Positions 3,501 through 27,974 of a stretch of DNA of 44,601 nt are shown one piece after another; position 1 is the stretch's first letter, and each line of letters starts with the position of its first letter. Made by a program: the position numbers and the translations under genes. Where the stretch lies: IMG/VR virus record IMGVR_UViG_2711768005_000013. The stretch is one strand, 5' to 3'. The stretch is from a virus (taxonomy: Duplodnaviria > Heunggongvirae > Uroviricota > Caudoviricetes). Below the pieces are notes generated by a model. The model saw nothing but the letters and a program-made list of their open reading frames with translations, searched no databases and was not told the DNA's origin.

Positions 3501-4008
3501 CCACCACCACCGAGACCAGATACTGCGAGGTGGTTTTGCCCTTAATGGTGATGTCTTTTTCCGTCACCCAGCCACCGTTACGCTGTATCTGAACCAGCAG
3601 GCGGACTTCCGACGGATTCCTGTCTCCCTTTGAGGTGGTTTCCACCAGTGCCTGTACACCGAAGGTAAAGCGCAGACGGTCGATGTTTGCCGACGTGATG
3701 GTCCGGGTGATCGGCGTGTCATATTTCACTTCCGTACCCAGCACCGTCTCGGAGCCGGAGGATTCAAACCCCTCCGGCGGTGACTGCTCCTGCTCACCTG
3801 CCCGGAACACCACCGTGACGCCGGAGATGTTGGTATTCCCCTCATTGTCCAGCACCGGCGTACTGTTCAGCAGCACGCTTTTTAATCCATCCACCGGACC
3901 TTCAACCGGCCCTTCACTGATGGCATCGATCACACTCAGCAGCTGCGTGGACTTCAGGTTGTCCTTCGCTTCGCGCGGGGTATGCCCCTTACTGCTGCCT
4001 TTACCCAT
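572..4008 (-). CDS. J: Tail tip / host specificity protein J (interrupted by an N run)
   Basis: N-terminus [34 protein letters not shown] matches lambda J; conserved central region; C-terminal about 150 aa diverges from lambda J; total length not a multiple of 3 because of the N run. Confidence 0.9.
2669..2964. other. Run of N (unresolved or masked sequence) inside J
   Basis: Contiguous n characters in the sequence. Confidence 1.
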
Positions 4009-23993: not shown

Positions 23994-24458
23994 TTACTTT
24001 AAACACTGCTCGGTTATGTATTGCTGAGCACCTTCAAGTTGGGCCTGCATCATTACCAGTCGTTCCCGGAGGGTGAAATAATCCCGTTCAGCGGTGTCTG
24101 CCAGTCGGGGGGAGGCTGCATTATCCACGCCGGAGGCGGTGGTGGCTTCACGCACTGACTGACAGACTGCTTTGATGTGCAACCGACGACGACCAGCGGC
24201 AACATCATCACGCAGAGCATCATTTTCAGCTTTCGCATCAGCTAACTCCTTCGTGTATTTTGCATCGAGCGCAGCAACATCACGCTGACGCATCTGCATG
24301 TCAGTAATTGCCGCGTTCGCCAGCTTCAGTTCTCTGGCATTTTTGTCGCGCTGGGCTTTGTAGGTAATGGCGTTATCACGGTAATGATTAACAGCCCATG
24401 ACAGGCAGACGATGATGCAGATAACCAGAGCGGAGATAATCGCGGTTACTCTGTTCAT
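23994..24458 (-). CDS. rzpR: Spanin inner-membrane subunit (Rz)
   Basis: N-terminal TM segment then coiled-coil; final gene of the lysis cassette; contains embedded Rz1 frame. Confidence 0.8.
24053..24238 (-). CDS. rzoR: Spanin outer-membrane lipoprotein subunit (Rz1), embedded in Rz in an alternative frame
   Basis: 61 aa with lipobox LVVVGC and Pro-rich mature region ([15 protein letters not shown]). Confidence 0.75.
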
Positions 24459-24946
24459 TGCTGACCCCACAAACAGATTTCACGCTCAATCTCACGACGA
24501 GTCATGAGACCTTTCCATTGCTTACCGCCAGCATATGTCCAGCGACGTAGCTGATCACATGCGCCTTTGATATCGCCCTGGTTTATTTTGCGANNNNNNN
24601 NNNNNNNNNNNNNNNNNNNNNNNNNNNNNNNNNNNNNNNNNNNNNNNNNNNNNNNNNNNNNNNNNNNNNNNNNNNNNNNNNNNNNNNNNNNNNNNNNNNN
24701 NNNNNNNNNNNNNNNNNNNNNNNNNNNNNNNNNNNNNNNNNNNNNNNNNNNNNNNNNNNNNNNNNNNNNNNNNNNNNNNNNNNNNNNNNNNNNNNNNNNN
24801 NNNNNNNNNNNNNNNNNNNNNNNNNNNNNNNNNNNNNNNNNNNCCAGACCATCGTTACCACTTGGGCCAGTGATTAACACTGATGCTATAGCAATTGCTC
24901 CGCCACCAATAGCAGCAGCAACGACTTTTCGTAATGATGGAGGCAT
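24455..24946 (-). CDS. SAR endolysin (phage 21 R-type lysozyme), interrupted by an N run
   Basis: N-terminus [34 protein letters not shown] (signal-anchor-release domain) and C-terminus [38 protein letters not shown] match the phage 21 lysozyme. Confidence 0.85.
24595..24843. other. Run of N inside the endolysin gene
   Basis: Contiguous n characters. Confidence 1.
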
Positions 24947-25161
24947 TATTCACCTCTCGCAGCCTTGCGCTTATCTTCTTTAATCTTGAAATAAAGGTTT
25001 GTCAGGTACGTCAGCAGGCCAAATACCAGACTACCCAGCACACCGATTGCAGCCCACTGTGACGGAGTTACTCTATCGAGCAACTGTAAAAACCAGTAGC
25101 CAGCACTGCCTGCGGAGGTGCCGTAGGCAATGCCTGTTGAAATTTTGTCCATGGATTTCAT
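24946..25161 (-). CDS. S21-type pinholin with dual start (Met1/Met4)
   Basis: [45 protein letters not shown]... closely matches phage 21 S; GGAGGTG SD 7 nt upstream; ATG codons at 25159-25161 and 25150-25152. Confidence 0.8.
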
Positions 25162-25264
25162 AGCCTCACCTCCGCACGGAACGGATGGCATAGTTATTAT
25201 GTGTAGGCTTTCAGACACATCAATCAGAGCCTTAATTGATATATATGCTGGAGACGATGCAATA

Positions 25265-25412: not shown

Positions 25413-25808
25413 CTAACCTCGCATGTCAAAGCCAGATTTCTGAAAATCTCTGTAGACTTCCGGATTGTTGAAGGCCGGAAATTTGGCTTTATGAGCTGCG
25501 GACTTTATCGCTTCGCAATAGGCTTTATCACCGTTACTGGTAGATATTTTTAACGCCGTGCCATCCTGAGAGAATTCCATATGCAACCTGCATTTTTTCC
25601 CTTTCCAGTTATGCGGCTCATCAAGTTTGGCATTAATTGCAGCTCTGATTCCCCGCGCTTGCGCCCCCCATTCATCCTGATCATCCCAGCGTCCTGAACT
25701 GCAACTACCTGTAGCAGTAGTTTTGTGGCAATCTGAAGGGTGTAAAGGTGTGCATCCCGCAACAAAACCGACCCAAAAAGTCAACATAACGATTTTCTTT
25801 AATCCCAC
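25413..25808 (-). CDS. Lipoprotein with TolA domain III-like C-terminal domain (paralog 2)
   Basis: GTG start with GAGGAG SD 4 nt upstream; signal peptide MGLKKIVMLTFWVGFVAGC with lipobox; C-terminal region aligns in pattern with the E. coli TolA C-terminal domain (GKKCRLHMEF..DG..LKI...GD...C.A...AA..AKFP....EVYRDFQ). Confidence 0.6.
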   Translation of the reverse strand: MGLKKIVMLTFWVGFVAGCTPLHPSDCHKTTATGSCSSGRWDDQDEWGAQARGIRAAINAKLDEPHNWKGKKCRLHMEFSQDGTALKISTSNGDKAYCEAIKSAAHKAKFPAFNNPEVYRDFQKSGFDMRG

Positions 25809-25958: not shown

Positions 25959-26387
25959 TCAGGGTTTAAAATCCAGCACCCCATTTTGAAATACTTTATA
26001 TACTTCCGGCGAAGGGGGGGCAGGTATATCAGCATTCTTTATCGCATTCATCGCTTCACGACATAAATCGAGGTCTCCACTTTCTCTTTTAACCTCCAGT
26101 AGAAGGCCATTCGGGGCCATATGCATTCTCAGTGTACACTCTTTTCCTGAATACTTACTCGCATCCCCGAACTGTTTTTCGATGGCGCTCTTGATTTGAT
26201 GGGCATACAGACGGATATCCTCACTAACATCAGAAGTACGTTCAGATGAACTCACATACTGTGTCTCTATTGCTTTATCGGAGTAATATGATGTACGGTC
26301 ATGATAATTTGTCGATACAGCATCAGTGCACCCGATAATAATCCCACTAATAATCAACGTAAGAATTGATGCGCTACGAAAACCCAT
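25959..26387 (-). CDS. Lipoprotein with TolA domain III-like C-terminal domain (paralog 1)
   Basis: GAGGA SD before ATG; signal peptide with lipobox IIGC; C-terminus YAHQIKSAIEKQFGDASKYSGKECTLRMHMAPNGLLLEVKRESGDLDLCREAMNAIKNADIPAPPSPEVYKVFQNGVLDFKP closely resembles the TolA C-terminal domain as I recall it. Confidence 0.7.
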   Translation of the reverse strand: MGFRSASILTLIISGIIIGCTDAVSTNYHDRTSYYSDKAIETQYVSSSERTSDVSEDIRLYAHQIKSAIEKQFGDASKYSGKECTLRMHMAPNGLLLEVKRESGDLDLCREAMNAIKNADIPAPPSPEVYKVFQNGVLDFKP

Positions 26388-26446: not shown

Positions 26447-26976
26447 ACAGCGAATCAGATCAAATAAAACGCACATTTGTTAACATTTACACAAAGTCTG
26501 CGTGGGATATTCTGAAAGAATATCCATAATGTGGAGAGAATCTATTGAAGTGCATGGTGCCGGGTGCCTCCCGGTGAACAAAATGTTCGTGATACCTGTC
26601 GGCGACAGAAAAGGTTAATGGTATCACCCCACCGCACAGGGGGATTCACCATGCAGGAGTTTTCTTAGCAAACTCACTGCGCGCCCGGCAACTCCCAACC
26701 ACATAAAATGCGGAGTTTGTGGCATTTATGCATATAACTCGCAGGAATTATCTTAAAAAACTGATGTCGATCCGGATTAAAAAGAAGCAGGTCATCATCA
26801 GATGACTGGAAAAAAGGAAAACAAAAAATACTCATCATACAGTTTTGATTGCAGGGATGAGCCTGCTATGCACAATATGCAGAATATAAGCAAGATAAAA
26901 ATATGCAGGCATATTATTTCGGATCTTGTTATTAACACAACCTTTTTAATAATCATTTGGCATACAATAAACCAGC

Positions 26977-27004
26977 CCAAAAAGAACCGCCTAAACAGGC
27001 GGTT
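26977..27004 (-). terminator. Intrinsic terminator in the Q-to-lysis intergenic region
   Basis: Minus-strand hairpin AACCGCCT-GTTT-AGGCGGTT followed by CTTTTTGGG. Confidence 0.45.
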
Positions 27005-27323
27005 GGTCAATACAAAGGATGCTTCGTCTTTATTATAGTAATCTGAGGCGTCGGGTGTCTTGTATCAGACAACATATTGTCCCGCTAAACAGCGAATTAC
27101 AAACCACCCTGCAATGATCTCTCATCTCATTTTATATGAGTTGACGACATCAGGATAACGCATCATCAGCCCCTGCCAAGAAATATCAAAACTCCCGCCA
27201 GCAATGTGTTATCACAATATTGTAAAAAAAACACAGCACCGAAACTATAACTGGTCTCTGTTATAATTTGGAGCAGAAAGACCAGTTGCCCAACTAGCAG
27301 CATTCTCCCCTGCTTTCCTGACG

Positions 27324-27351
27324 TAAAAAAACCGCATTAAGCGGTTTTTTT
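27324..27351. terminator. Perfect palindromic bidirectional terminator about 80 bp downstream of Q
   Basis: AAAAAAACCGC-ATTAA-GCGGTTTTTTT: stem flanked by A-run and T-run, so a U-tract follows the hairpin on either strand. Confidence 0.55.
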
Positions 27352-27431
27352 ACGATGTCCATGTCTGCAATCCGCCTCGCGATACAGCTTTGCGAAGCAT
27401 AGCAAAATTGAAGCAGTTTATACGTAAGAAA

Positions 27432-27974
27432 TCAAGCCATTTTCTCAGCAAATGATTCACGCATGGGAATATATAGGGCATACTCAGCAACAGCTAACCA
27501 ATTAGCAATCCGTTTTTCGCATGTGCTAAAACACCACTCTGGGTGTGCATCATTTAGCAATTCAGCCATTTTGCGCTTAGTCATCCCCCGCCCTTCATAG
27601 CGTTGCCGGAGAATGCAAATCAATCCTGGATGCTCTGCCAGCACCTCACTTATGACTCGATCAATACATAACGCCTCTGCATCAGTACAATGCGCCAGCC
27701 AGCTCTTTTGCTTGCCGTTGATCATCTCTCGCAAAAACGCTTCCAGCTCAGCTTTCTCTATTCCCGCTTTTTTCATTCTGCGCAGGGCTTCATTAATGGC
27801 TGTTTTCGTCAGTTTTTTGGATGCCAACAACTGATTGAACATATTCCCTGACCTGCCACCGCCAATATACGACCAGCGCCCCCACATACGTAGTTTTCCC
27901 TGAATCCAGACACTTTCCAGCGTGGTGAGGCGAAGGTGTTCTCCGCTTTTTCCTGTATTCGTTGGGTAAATCAT
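27432..27974 (-). CDS. Q-like late antiterminator
   Basis: 180 aa in the Q position (between nin-type genes and the lysis cassette) with LRMWGRWSYIGGG segment resembling Q-family proteins. Confidence 0.55.
   Translation of the reverse strand: MIYPTNTGKSGEHLRLTTLESVWIQGKLRMWGRWSYIGGGRSGNMFNQLLASKKLTKTAINEALRRMKKAGIEKAELEAFLREMINGKQKSWLAHCTDAEALCIDRVISEVLAEHPGLICILRQRYEGRGMTKRKMAELLNDAHPEWCFSTCEKRIANWLAVAEYALYIPMRESFAEKMA

Follow-up and report, generated by a model that had tools for sequence, protein, structure and literature searches.

A predicted Q-dependent late leader and a decayed STnc100/PasD-type RNA in the Q-to-lysis interval of an Escherichia coli lambdoid prophage

Results

The virus record IMGVR_UViG_2711768005_000013 of IMG/VR, a stretch of 44,601 nucleotides (nt) henceforth referred to as the window, is an Escherichia coli lambdoid prophage. 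The queried stretch matches several hundred E. coli chromosomes at 99.8–100% identity, and a window-type region was found in ~450 of 5,426 complete E. coli genomes. The late genes are encoded on the minus strand, where DUF1367 and YbcO genes are followed by the gene of a 180-amino-acid DUF1133 protein (27432..27974), a Q-like antiterminator, and then by the Q-to-lysis interval characterized here. This interval probably contains parts of two independent late-strand units, a Q-dependent cassette with a leader RNA ending at its terminator (tR′) and a decayed copy of a structured RNA of the STnc100/PasD type. Both units are of known kinds but were previously unannotated at this locus.

Proposed late cassette next to the Q stop codon

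At the 3′ end of the DUF1133 gene, the minus strand of the window carries the arrangement TTGATT-17-TTCAAT-5-TATGCT (27435..27396). The −35-like hexamer TTGATT (27430..27435) overlaps the TGA stop codon of the Q gene, the −10-like hexamer TTCAAT (27407..27412) is the proposed promoter −10, and a second −10-like element, TGcTATGCT (27396..27404, with TATGCT at 27401..27396), begins 5 nt after the first. TTGATT and TTCAAT are proposed to form the late promoter with a predicted start near A27400, and TATGCT is proposed as a sigma-70-dependent pause element at about −1..+5. The initial annotation, which was made from the letters and open reading frames of the window alone, had tentatively taken the interval with the two terminator hairpins for the Q-utilization region; the promoter proposed here is not between these hairpins but between the Q stop and the first of them. 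That no minus-strand late promoter had been recognized at that stage is explained by this position 5′ of both hairpins and by the overlap of its −35 with the Q stop. The broader suggestion of a late promoter/terminator region with a 6S-like RNA was sound in that the interval is a Q-to-lysis leader whose first hairpin is predicted to end a short 6S-like late RNA, but the geometry given for it did not hold.

Comparison was made with 115 loci encoding DUF1133 proteins (one genome per species plus viral contigs) and five more from Salmonella assemblies, and motif counts were taken over 126 fetched loci, nearly all of which had been chosen for a DUF1133-type Q gene. Across the fetched loci the 59–62 nt following the Q stop (27431..27370) are kept at 86–98% identity, and the DNA is mosaic beyond them. 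The same break in conservation was seen in the E. coli genome search, where homology to mosaic relatives ends at 27373–27370. In the phage database, the match was confined to the 68 nt that follow the Q stop and came without useful regulatory annotation, and the Rac-SA53 and Rac records hold no promoter or terminator annotation. The motif TTG-N20-TTNAAT-N5-TANGCT occurs once in the window compared to 0.00 occurrences expected from shuffling. As a single occurrence, on the Q strand and after the Q gene, it was present in 108 of the 126 loci, which span many genera, and the cassette layout is also seen in genera whose Q is only 55–64% identical.

The 44 distinct cassettes all have TTG exactly 17 nt 5′ of TTnAAT, and in every one of them positions 2 and 6 of TAnGCT are A and T, respectively. 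The first hexamer is TTCAAT in 23 of them, TTGAAT in 11, TTAAAT in 8 and TTTAAT in 2. A conserved initial transcribed box, TCGCAAAGCTGTATCGCGAGGCG (27373..27395, minus strand), is near-invariant in E. coli/Salmonella-type cassettes and is replaced as a block by CGGGACGTTAAAGCGAACTGAGCA in the genera with 55–64% identical Q. Q divergence and the sequence blocks of the cassette co-vary across loci.

The spacing of the first two elements also survives where the surrounding DNA is different. In the Salmonella locus L008, an isrK-C4-antirepressor insertion after Q displaces the cassette by ~850 nt, and unrelated DNA supplies TTGCAT exactly 17 nt before TTCAAT. In two further loci the Q gene stops earlier, and non-coding TTGCAA (L122, after a TAA stop) or TTGTAG (L014) occupies the −35 position. 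Rac-SA53 has the same spacing with other hexamers, TTGATT-17-TATCTT-5-TAAGAT. Because TTG is re-created 17 nt upstream in non-homologous contexts and Rac-SA53 keeps the spacing, the first two elements were read as the proposed −35 and −10.

A different anatomy of the same cassette has to be weighed here. TTnAAT does not have the near-universal A at position 2 of a −10 element, and TGnTAnGCT may therefore be the real −10. In the window, TGcTATGCT (27404..27396) would then be a true extended −10, transcription would begin near 27389 and give a leader of ~65 nt, and TTG...TTCAAT would be Q-binding or other sites. The invariant A2 and T6 of TAnGCT fit this alternative, as does the TG that precedes it in most cassettes (TGTGA, TTTGC), and the known binding site of Q21 is a direct repeat located 5′ of the Q21 pause element (10.1101/651190). 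On the other hand, common variants (TCCGG, CCCGG and TCCAG) do not retain the TG, and no conserved −10-like pause element, a defining part of a Q cassette, would be left downstream. The exact re-creation of TTG 17 nt from TTCAAT and the better first hexamer of Rac-SA53 (TATCTT) are further points for a −35/−10 pair followed by a pause element, and the extended −10 anatomy is considered possible but doubtful.

In Salmonella and E. coli relatives, an isrK module consisting of isrK, C4 RNA and an antirepressor gene lies between the Q stop and the late cassette (3588..4470 in L008; 3575..3776 in L004). The inserted module is P1 immI-like and matches Gifsy-1 isrK-orf45-anrP. Its isrK −35 (TTGACT) likewise overlaps the Q stop, which suggests that the TTGA shared by stop codon and −35 is a recombination joint. 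The position of IsrJ in Gifsy-1 is that of the displaced cassette in L008, raising the question of whether IsrJ is a displaced late leader RNA; neither the window nor L008 nor any of four Salmonella loci gave a match to isrJ.

First terminator and predicted leader RNA

The initial annotation had noted a palindromic, bidirectional terminator about 80 bp after the Q stop, and this was confirmed. The perfect palindrome cgtAAAAAAACCGC-attaa-GCGGTTTTTTTacg (27322..27354, both strands) has 14-nt arms and a 5-nt loop, and its near edge is 78 nt away from the end of the Q gene (27432). The coordinates given earlier, 27324..27351, correspond to its core. Its core stem, CCGC/GCGG (27332–27335 with 27341–27344), is flanked by A7 and T7. 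The hairpin folds with −19.0 kcal/mol on the minus strand, where it is followed by U7, and with −18.4 kcal/mol on the plus strand. A generic terminator scan of the window returned 3 terminator-like sites compared to 1.7 expected. The palindrome was not among them, probably owing to the T-run being absorbed into the stem when this is extended as far as possible.

A hairpin with a T-run starting 66–107 nt after the Q stop (median 101; 100 nt in the window) was found in 55 of 59 distinct downstream sequences. The terminator sequences themselves vary among loci and include CCCGC-type and CCACC-type stems in addition to the CCGC stem with A7/T7 of the window. Since so many distinct loci carry a hairpin and T-run at a like distance with differing sequences, the palindrome is best read as the predicted tR′ of the late cassette. 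The comparative data identify this terminator and the second one, described below, as conserved features. Two transfer RNA (tRNA) genes stand just after tR′ in many relatives (L003, L006, L072, L075 and L124–L126), ~350–500 nt after the Q stop, as in Shiga toxin (Stx) phages; the window, unlike these relatives, has no tRNA genes after tR′.

Transcription from the proposed start to tR′ would yield a predicted ~76-nt leader RNA resembling 6S, StxS and IsrK (27325..27400, minus strand). Its 5′ hairpin pairs 27398–27392 with 27380–27374 and is followed by the terminator hairpin, and the predicted fold has an energy of −24.8 kcal/mol (z = −2.94). The leader matches isrK (RF01394) over its full length (27398..27325) with 21.6 bits and E = 0.036, which at a gathering score of 50 is a resemblance below membership.

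Structured RNA module and second terminator

Downstream of tR′, the late strand of the window encodes a decayed copy of a structured, non-coding RNA of ~300 nt (27275..26975), as determined from an alignment (A4) and a covariance model. The module comprises helix 1 (27267–27262 with 27249–27244), a long helix 3/4 (27226–27141) and an STnc100/PasD-like domain (27127–26975). Between tR′ and the module, a mosaic spacer (27276..27321, minus strand) contains the start of a 45-codon open reading frame (ORF45) and the left arm of an inverted repeat; it is ~73% identical only to L087-type loci, with frame-shifting indels.

Alignment A4 contains 12 sequences, and its late-strand consensus has 78 pairs with 94.9% of cells paired. 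Changes on both sides were counted in 19 pairs, compared to 7.5 ± 1.8 in shuffles (0 of 500 reached 19) and 5–12 in slid-partner controls, with the structure derived from the same alignment that was used for these counts. The consensus energy is −71.7 kcal/mol for the late strand and −31.8 kcal/mol for the opposite strand, which is weaker because the module contains many G-U pairs. A long-range helix occurs in three compensating versions, GAGGUG/CACCUC, GAGGCG/CGCCUC and GAGACG/CGUCUC.

The 3′ domain was compared with known RNA families. The better-preserved copy in locus L072 gave a full-model match to STnc100 (RF02076) of 27.3 bits (E = 3.6e-4) at a gathering score of 47, and the window copy gave no match to this family at E ≤ 5. 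A custom covariance model of the 3′ domain, R1, which was built without the window, gave the window copy 42.4 bits; it also matched PasD2 of E2348/69 (E = 6e-5) and two genuine STnc100 RNAs, one in L017 (E = 6e-4) and one in the window itself (E = 8e-4). The custom model R1 is thus what points to the module 3′ domain belonging with STnc100 and PasD, for which a common ancestor has already been proposed (10.64898/2026.05.13.724894). The module is a further, third branch of this group with an extra 5′ domain made up of helix 1 and a 29-bp helix.

A distant search with 27325..27090 found copies 60–80% identical in E. coli prophages with unrelated Q genes, where they lie directly 3′ of tRNA arrays and another terminator. 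At other loci, module copies follow DUF1133 Q genes at ~600–900 nt. The module is mobile and travels independently of Q type. The better-preserved L072 type was found in 427 of the 5,426 complete E. coli genomes, including W, 042 and E24377A, at up to 5 copies per genome and with 40 copies on plasmids, and is unannotated in almost all of the matches listed. Of the 78 pairs, only 59 can form in the window copy, which has also lost one arm of the CGGGAGGCACCCG hairpin through a 20-nt deletion.

The second minus-strand terminator of the initial annotation proved genuine. Its stem AACCGCCT/AGGCGGTT (27004..26985) is followed by CTTTTT (feature 26979..27004, minus strand; −13 kcal/mol, CUUUUU), and it was also returned by the terminator scan. 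It is kept in the 11 homologues that align there (the JNE070796 segment ends inside it); the loops vary, and one closing pair changes on both sides. It is the 3′ end of the structured RNA, which also occurs behind unrelated Q genes, and not part of the Q cassette.

Two candidates of other kinds were rejected in this region. A leader peptide, MMRYPDVVNSYKMR (27166..27122), had a Shine-Dalgarno sequence and synonymous changes but corresponds to the 3′ arm of the covarying 29-bp helix 3. PasA or PasC as the identity of the module or of a plus-strand RNA was dismissed from the E2348/69 locus, with no PasA homology found.

The promoter scan identified a further promoter-like sequence inside the module, AAGACA-18-TATAAT (27032..27061, minus strand). 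It raises the alternative that the first hairpin is no more than the end of the early-right (Q) operon and that the real late promoter is elsewhere, for example at 27061..27032. With 10 of 12 positions, this sequence matches sigma-70 promoters better than any other in the region, and its TAnAAT-like hexamer (27032..27037; A4 columns ~274–280) is kept in 11 of 12 homologues, with the variants TATAAT, TACAAT, AACAAT and TAAAAT, and reads TTTAAT in the twelfth. It also has a terminator ~45 nt downstream. Its AAGACA −35, however, was created by the 20-nt deletion specific to the window, and no second −10-like element accompanies it. Because the module moves independently of Q type, it cannot carry a Q-specific loading site, and the Q-linked conserved cassette at 27435..27373 would be left unexplained. 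A late promoter within the module is thus very unlikely, and the cassette at the Q stop remains the preferred location. In all 12 homologues the hexamer is ~45 nt upstream of the U-run of the module terminator; it might act as an internal promoter, from which an RNA of ~47 nt would be made, or simply belong to a conserved single-stranded stretch rich in A and U.

Plus-strand match to an extended −10 element, and ORF45

The plus-strand TGtTATAAT and the 7-bp inverted repeat around it, both reported in the initial annotation, are present in the window. TGtTATAAT, TGTTATAAT, is at 27259..27267, and the repeat pairs CTGGTCT (27251–27257) with AGACCAG (27281–27287). In a rival explanation, the extended −10 drives an antisense RNA of ~78 nt that ends at the palindrome and opposes late transcription. 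The TGnTATAAT is perfect, the palindrome folds about equally well on the plus strand and is followed there by T7, the predicted RNA has a fold z-score of −2.84, and PasA, annotated "> < >" (PMC8550237 table S6), provides a precedent. The two closest homologues moreover keep TATAAT or TATAGT.

These observations are outweighed by others. The motif TGNTATAAT occurs 2 times in the window compared to 1.62 expected, and 45 of 100 shuffles reach 2; no −35 was found, most of the z-score comes from the shared palindrome, and there is no homology to PasA. The plus-strand TATAAT is the exact complement of the 5′ arm of helix 1 (27267..27262), which covaries with 27249..27244. Among the 12 homologues, TATAAT or TATAGT occurs in the 3 closest relatives, and TCATAG or TTACA replaces it in 9. 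Given a motif at chance level, its poor conservation and its overlap with the helix 1 arm, the antisense small RNA of the initial annotation is unlikely, and the element was judged incidental.

The inverted repeat recurs as ACTGGTC/GACCAGT in L087-type loci (about 3660..3740) around a different, longer loop; the remaining homologues of the module do not have it. The repeat of the window is in competition with helix 1 and may be an alternative structure or a recombination scar.

ORF45 (27166..27303, minus strand) was judged non-coding, in agreement with earlier doubts about its weak translation signals. The alternative is that it encodes a real small hydrophobic protein like Gifsy-1 orf45, the translation of which couples to the downstream gene (PMC4825925). 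ORF45 equals Gifsy-1 orf45 in length and likewise follows an IsrK-like RNA (PMC4825925), and its stop overlaps an ATG (TGATG) at 27168–27164. Against this, no Pfam match was obtained, the Shine-Dalgarno spacing is poor, and the frame is broken by indels in every diverged homologue (L087, RM10740 and L072-type). The 3′ half of ORF45 lies inside helices 1–4 of the structured RNA, the downstream mini-ORF is the 3′ arm of helix 3, and neither a C4 RNA nor an antirepressor gene was found in the window by gene list and Rfam search. Homology to Gifsy-1 orf45 was rejected since the frame is not kept, and a protein product is highly improbable.

The DUF1133 protein as a probable Q antiterminator

The identity of the 180-residue protein encoded at 27432..27974 (minus strand; Pfam DUF1133, E = 2.5e-107) was examined by profile comparison. 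Its match to PF06530 (Phage_antitermQ) is borderline, at 26.1 bits with a cut-off of 26. For a profile of 15 family members, the best PDB match was the Q protein of phage 21 (6p18/6jnx; E = 1.1e-4), colinear over Q21 residues 6–31 and 57–152. The comparison leaves a 13-residue gap in the C-terminal DNA-binding region, which we infer to correspond to the loop in the helix-turn[loop]helix of Q21. DUF1133 relatives 84–89% identical lie directly 5′ of a true isrK in L004 and L008 (67–81 bits), and in Gifsy-1 an experimentally active antiterminator, AntQ, directly precedes isrK (PMC4825925). On the basis of the borderline PF06530 match, the best PDB match to Q21 and the position of relatives upstream of isrK as for AntQ, the predicted function of the DUF1133 protein as a Q antiterminator is credible.

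The closest DUF1133 cluster alone comprises ~1,200 member sequences, which genome pipelines still label "DUF1133 family protein", and a full-text literature search retrieved no paper using the name "DUF1133". The contigs of a "Candidatus Nanosynbacter" metagenome-assembled genome (L007) and of "Vagococcus sp." (L013) encode this enterobacterial Q with 100% and 58% identity, respectively; these assemblies are probably contaminated or mis-binned.

Neighboring features of the window

Further along the late strand, the interval is followed by an STnc100 RNA, two genes for lipoproteins with TolA C-terminal domains, a phage-21-type holin and an endolysin. The STnc100 small RNA (RF02076; 26498..26684, minus strand) is bona fide at 86.6 bits, and its 3′ hairpin has no clear U-run in the window. 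The window thereby has an intact and a decayed member of the STnc100/PasD superfamily in tandem. The paralogous lipoprotein genes (25413..25808 and 25959..26387, minus strand) stand between Q and the holin gene (24946..25218), a cargo position that holds toxin genes in relatives, namely eplBA in Rac-SA53 and an ArtA-like gene in L008. The signal-arrest-release (SAR) endolysin gene (24455..24946, minus strand) includes a masked N run (24583..24861), which appears as an X block in its translation. At the far end of the window, a RalA antitoxin RNA (RF02694; 42867..43045, minus strand; 225 bits) indicates a ralR/ralA toxin-antitoxin locus of the Rac type, by which the prophage is assigned to the Rac-like group.

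Discussion

The arrangement described here suggests how the late leader of this prophage may operate. In the lysogen, the late promoter would fire near A27400, and TATGCT would re-capture sigma-70 such that RNA polymerase pauses ~15 nt into the transcript, as at lambda PR′. In the absence of Q, transcription would end at 27354..27322 and release the ~76-nt leader. These steps are predicted from the conservation of the elements. Upon induction, the DUF1133 Q protein would load at the paused complex and render the polymerase terminator-resistant. Read-through of tR′, of the module terminator and of the STnc100 terminator would then allow expression of the TolA-like lipoprotein and holin/endolysin genes. 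What was observed is the conservation and architecture of the motif, the positions of the terminators, and the covariation and strand asymmetry of the module; the start site, the pause and the Q dependence are inferred, and either RNA might in addition act in trans.

In addition to the A2 missing from the first hexamer and the single alignment behind both the module structure and its pair counts, several points weigh against this interpretation. The start site, pause and termination of the cassette are themselves predictions from sequence. Loci L004 and L005, close in Q, have no cassette within the fetched DNA, where an insertion sequence (IS) element intervenes. The tR′ stem of the window contains only four G-C pairs and reaches −6.0 kcal/mol without its A-U extension, which makes it the weakest variant of the family, and no covariation was found in the 5′ hairpin of the leader among cassettes, only wobble changes and a few breaks. 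The link between DUF1133 and Q21 is weak in sequence, an AlphaFold2 model of Q from 15 sequences was too poor to test the fold (predicted local distance difference test score, pLDDT, of 55), and no Q-binding site could be defined for the DUF1133 protein. The window copy of the module is degenerate and may be non-functional.

The structure papers on Q (6P18, 6JNX) count three Q families, and DUF1133 is not among them. It is conceivable, if rather speculative, that DUF1133 represents a fourth, Q21-related Q lineage without part of the Q21 DNA-binding region, whose loading site would combine TTG-N20-TTnAAT-N5-TAnGCT with the box of ~25 nt that comes directly after the pause element. Among cassettes of one lineage this box hardly varies, and where Q has diverged it is exchanged as a whole. 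As part of the same tentative proposal, some of the specificity would reside in the transcribed region, as DNA or nascent RNA, and not only upstream as in lambda and phage 21.

The results leave current concepts unchanged and fill in annotation. They provide a concrete, testable layout of promoter, pause element, leader and tR′ for a very common, uncharacterized family of prophage antiterminators. In relatives (Rac-SA53 and L008) the same cassette is upstream of LT-II/pertussis-like and ArtAB-type toxin genes, and it is therefore likely the control point for release of those toxins. The results also add an unannotated third STnc100/PasD branch, the modules of which move among late leaders of prophages with unrelated Q proteins.

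Comparison with known systems

By definition (PMC9388147), a Q-dependent cassette combines a promoter and a −10-like pause element with a terminator that precedes the late genes. Like lambda PR′-6S-tR′, the window has a Q gene immediately followed by a candidate promoter, a putative pause element abutting the predicted start and a terminator ahead of the late genes. The 6S RNA of lambda is 194 nt long, compared to ~76 nt for the predicted leader. The proposed −35 of the window, unlike that of lambda, overlaps the Q stop codon, and the window Q is unrelated to lambda Q (PF03589). The lambda −10 and pause elements are offset by 13 bp, with third positions at −10 and +3 (10.1101/2022.01.24.477500), whereas the offset in the window is 11 bp. 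Constitutive PR′-tR′ RNAs include lambda 6S and also StxS of Stx phages, which is ended at tR′ in lysogens (PMC7547250). StxS is a short late-promoter RNA ending at tR′, as predicted for the leader of the window, but differs from it in Q family and sequence.

Phage 21 Q with PR′21 (PF06530; 6P18, 6JNX) is the best PDB relative of the window Q and follows the same cassette logic. The window Q differs by the 13-residue gap in its C-terminal DNA-binding region, and nothing comparable to the tandem 8-bp direct repeat bound by Q21 was recognized.

Gifsy-1 AntQ-IsrK (RF01394)-orf45-AnrP apparently has the same Q family. Its similarity to the window extends to an RNA of ~77 nt (in the window a predicted one) with a 5′ hairpin and terminator directly after the Q stop, a −35 overlapping the stop and a 45-codon ORF that follows. 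The leader of the window, in contrast, is below the isrK gathering score and is accompanied by neither a C4 RNA nor an antirepressor gene. The isrK and window leaders are not orthologous because the isrK module in L008 sits between Q and a window-type cassette.

The small RNA genes of PasA and PasC are found close to the lysis genes and on the strand opposite to that of the late operon (PMC8550237 table S6). They share no sequence homology with the RNAs considered here, and PasA is located just upstream of the holin gene, not beside tR′. The module differs from STnc100, PasD1 and PasD2 in being below the Rfam threshold, in its extra 5′ domain and in the decay of the window copy. Its 3′ domain shares with them the long-range helix, the CGGGAGGCACCCG hairpin and the terminator, and like them it is oriented with the late strand in the Q-to-lysis leader region (10.64898/2026.05.13.724894; PMC12370729).

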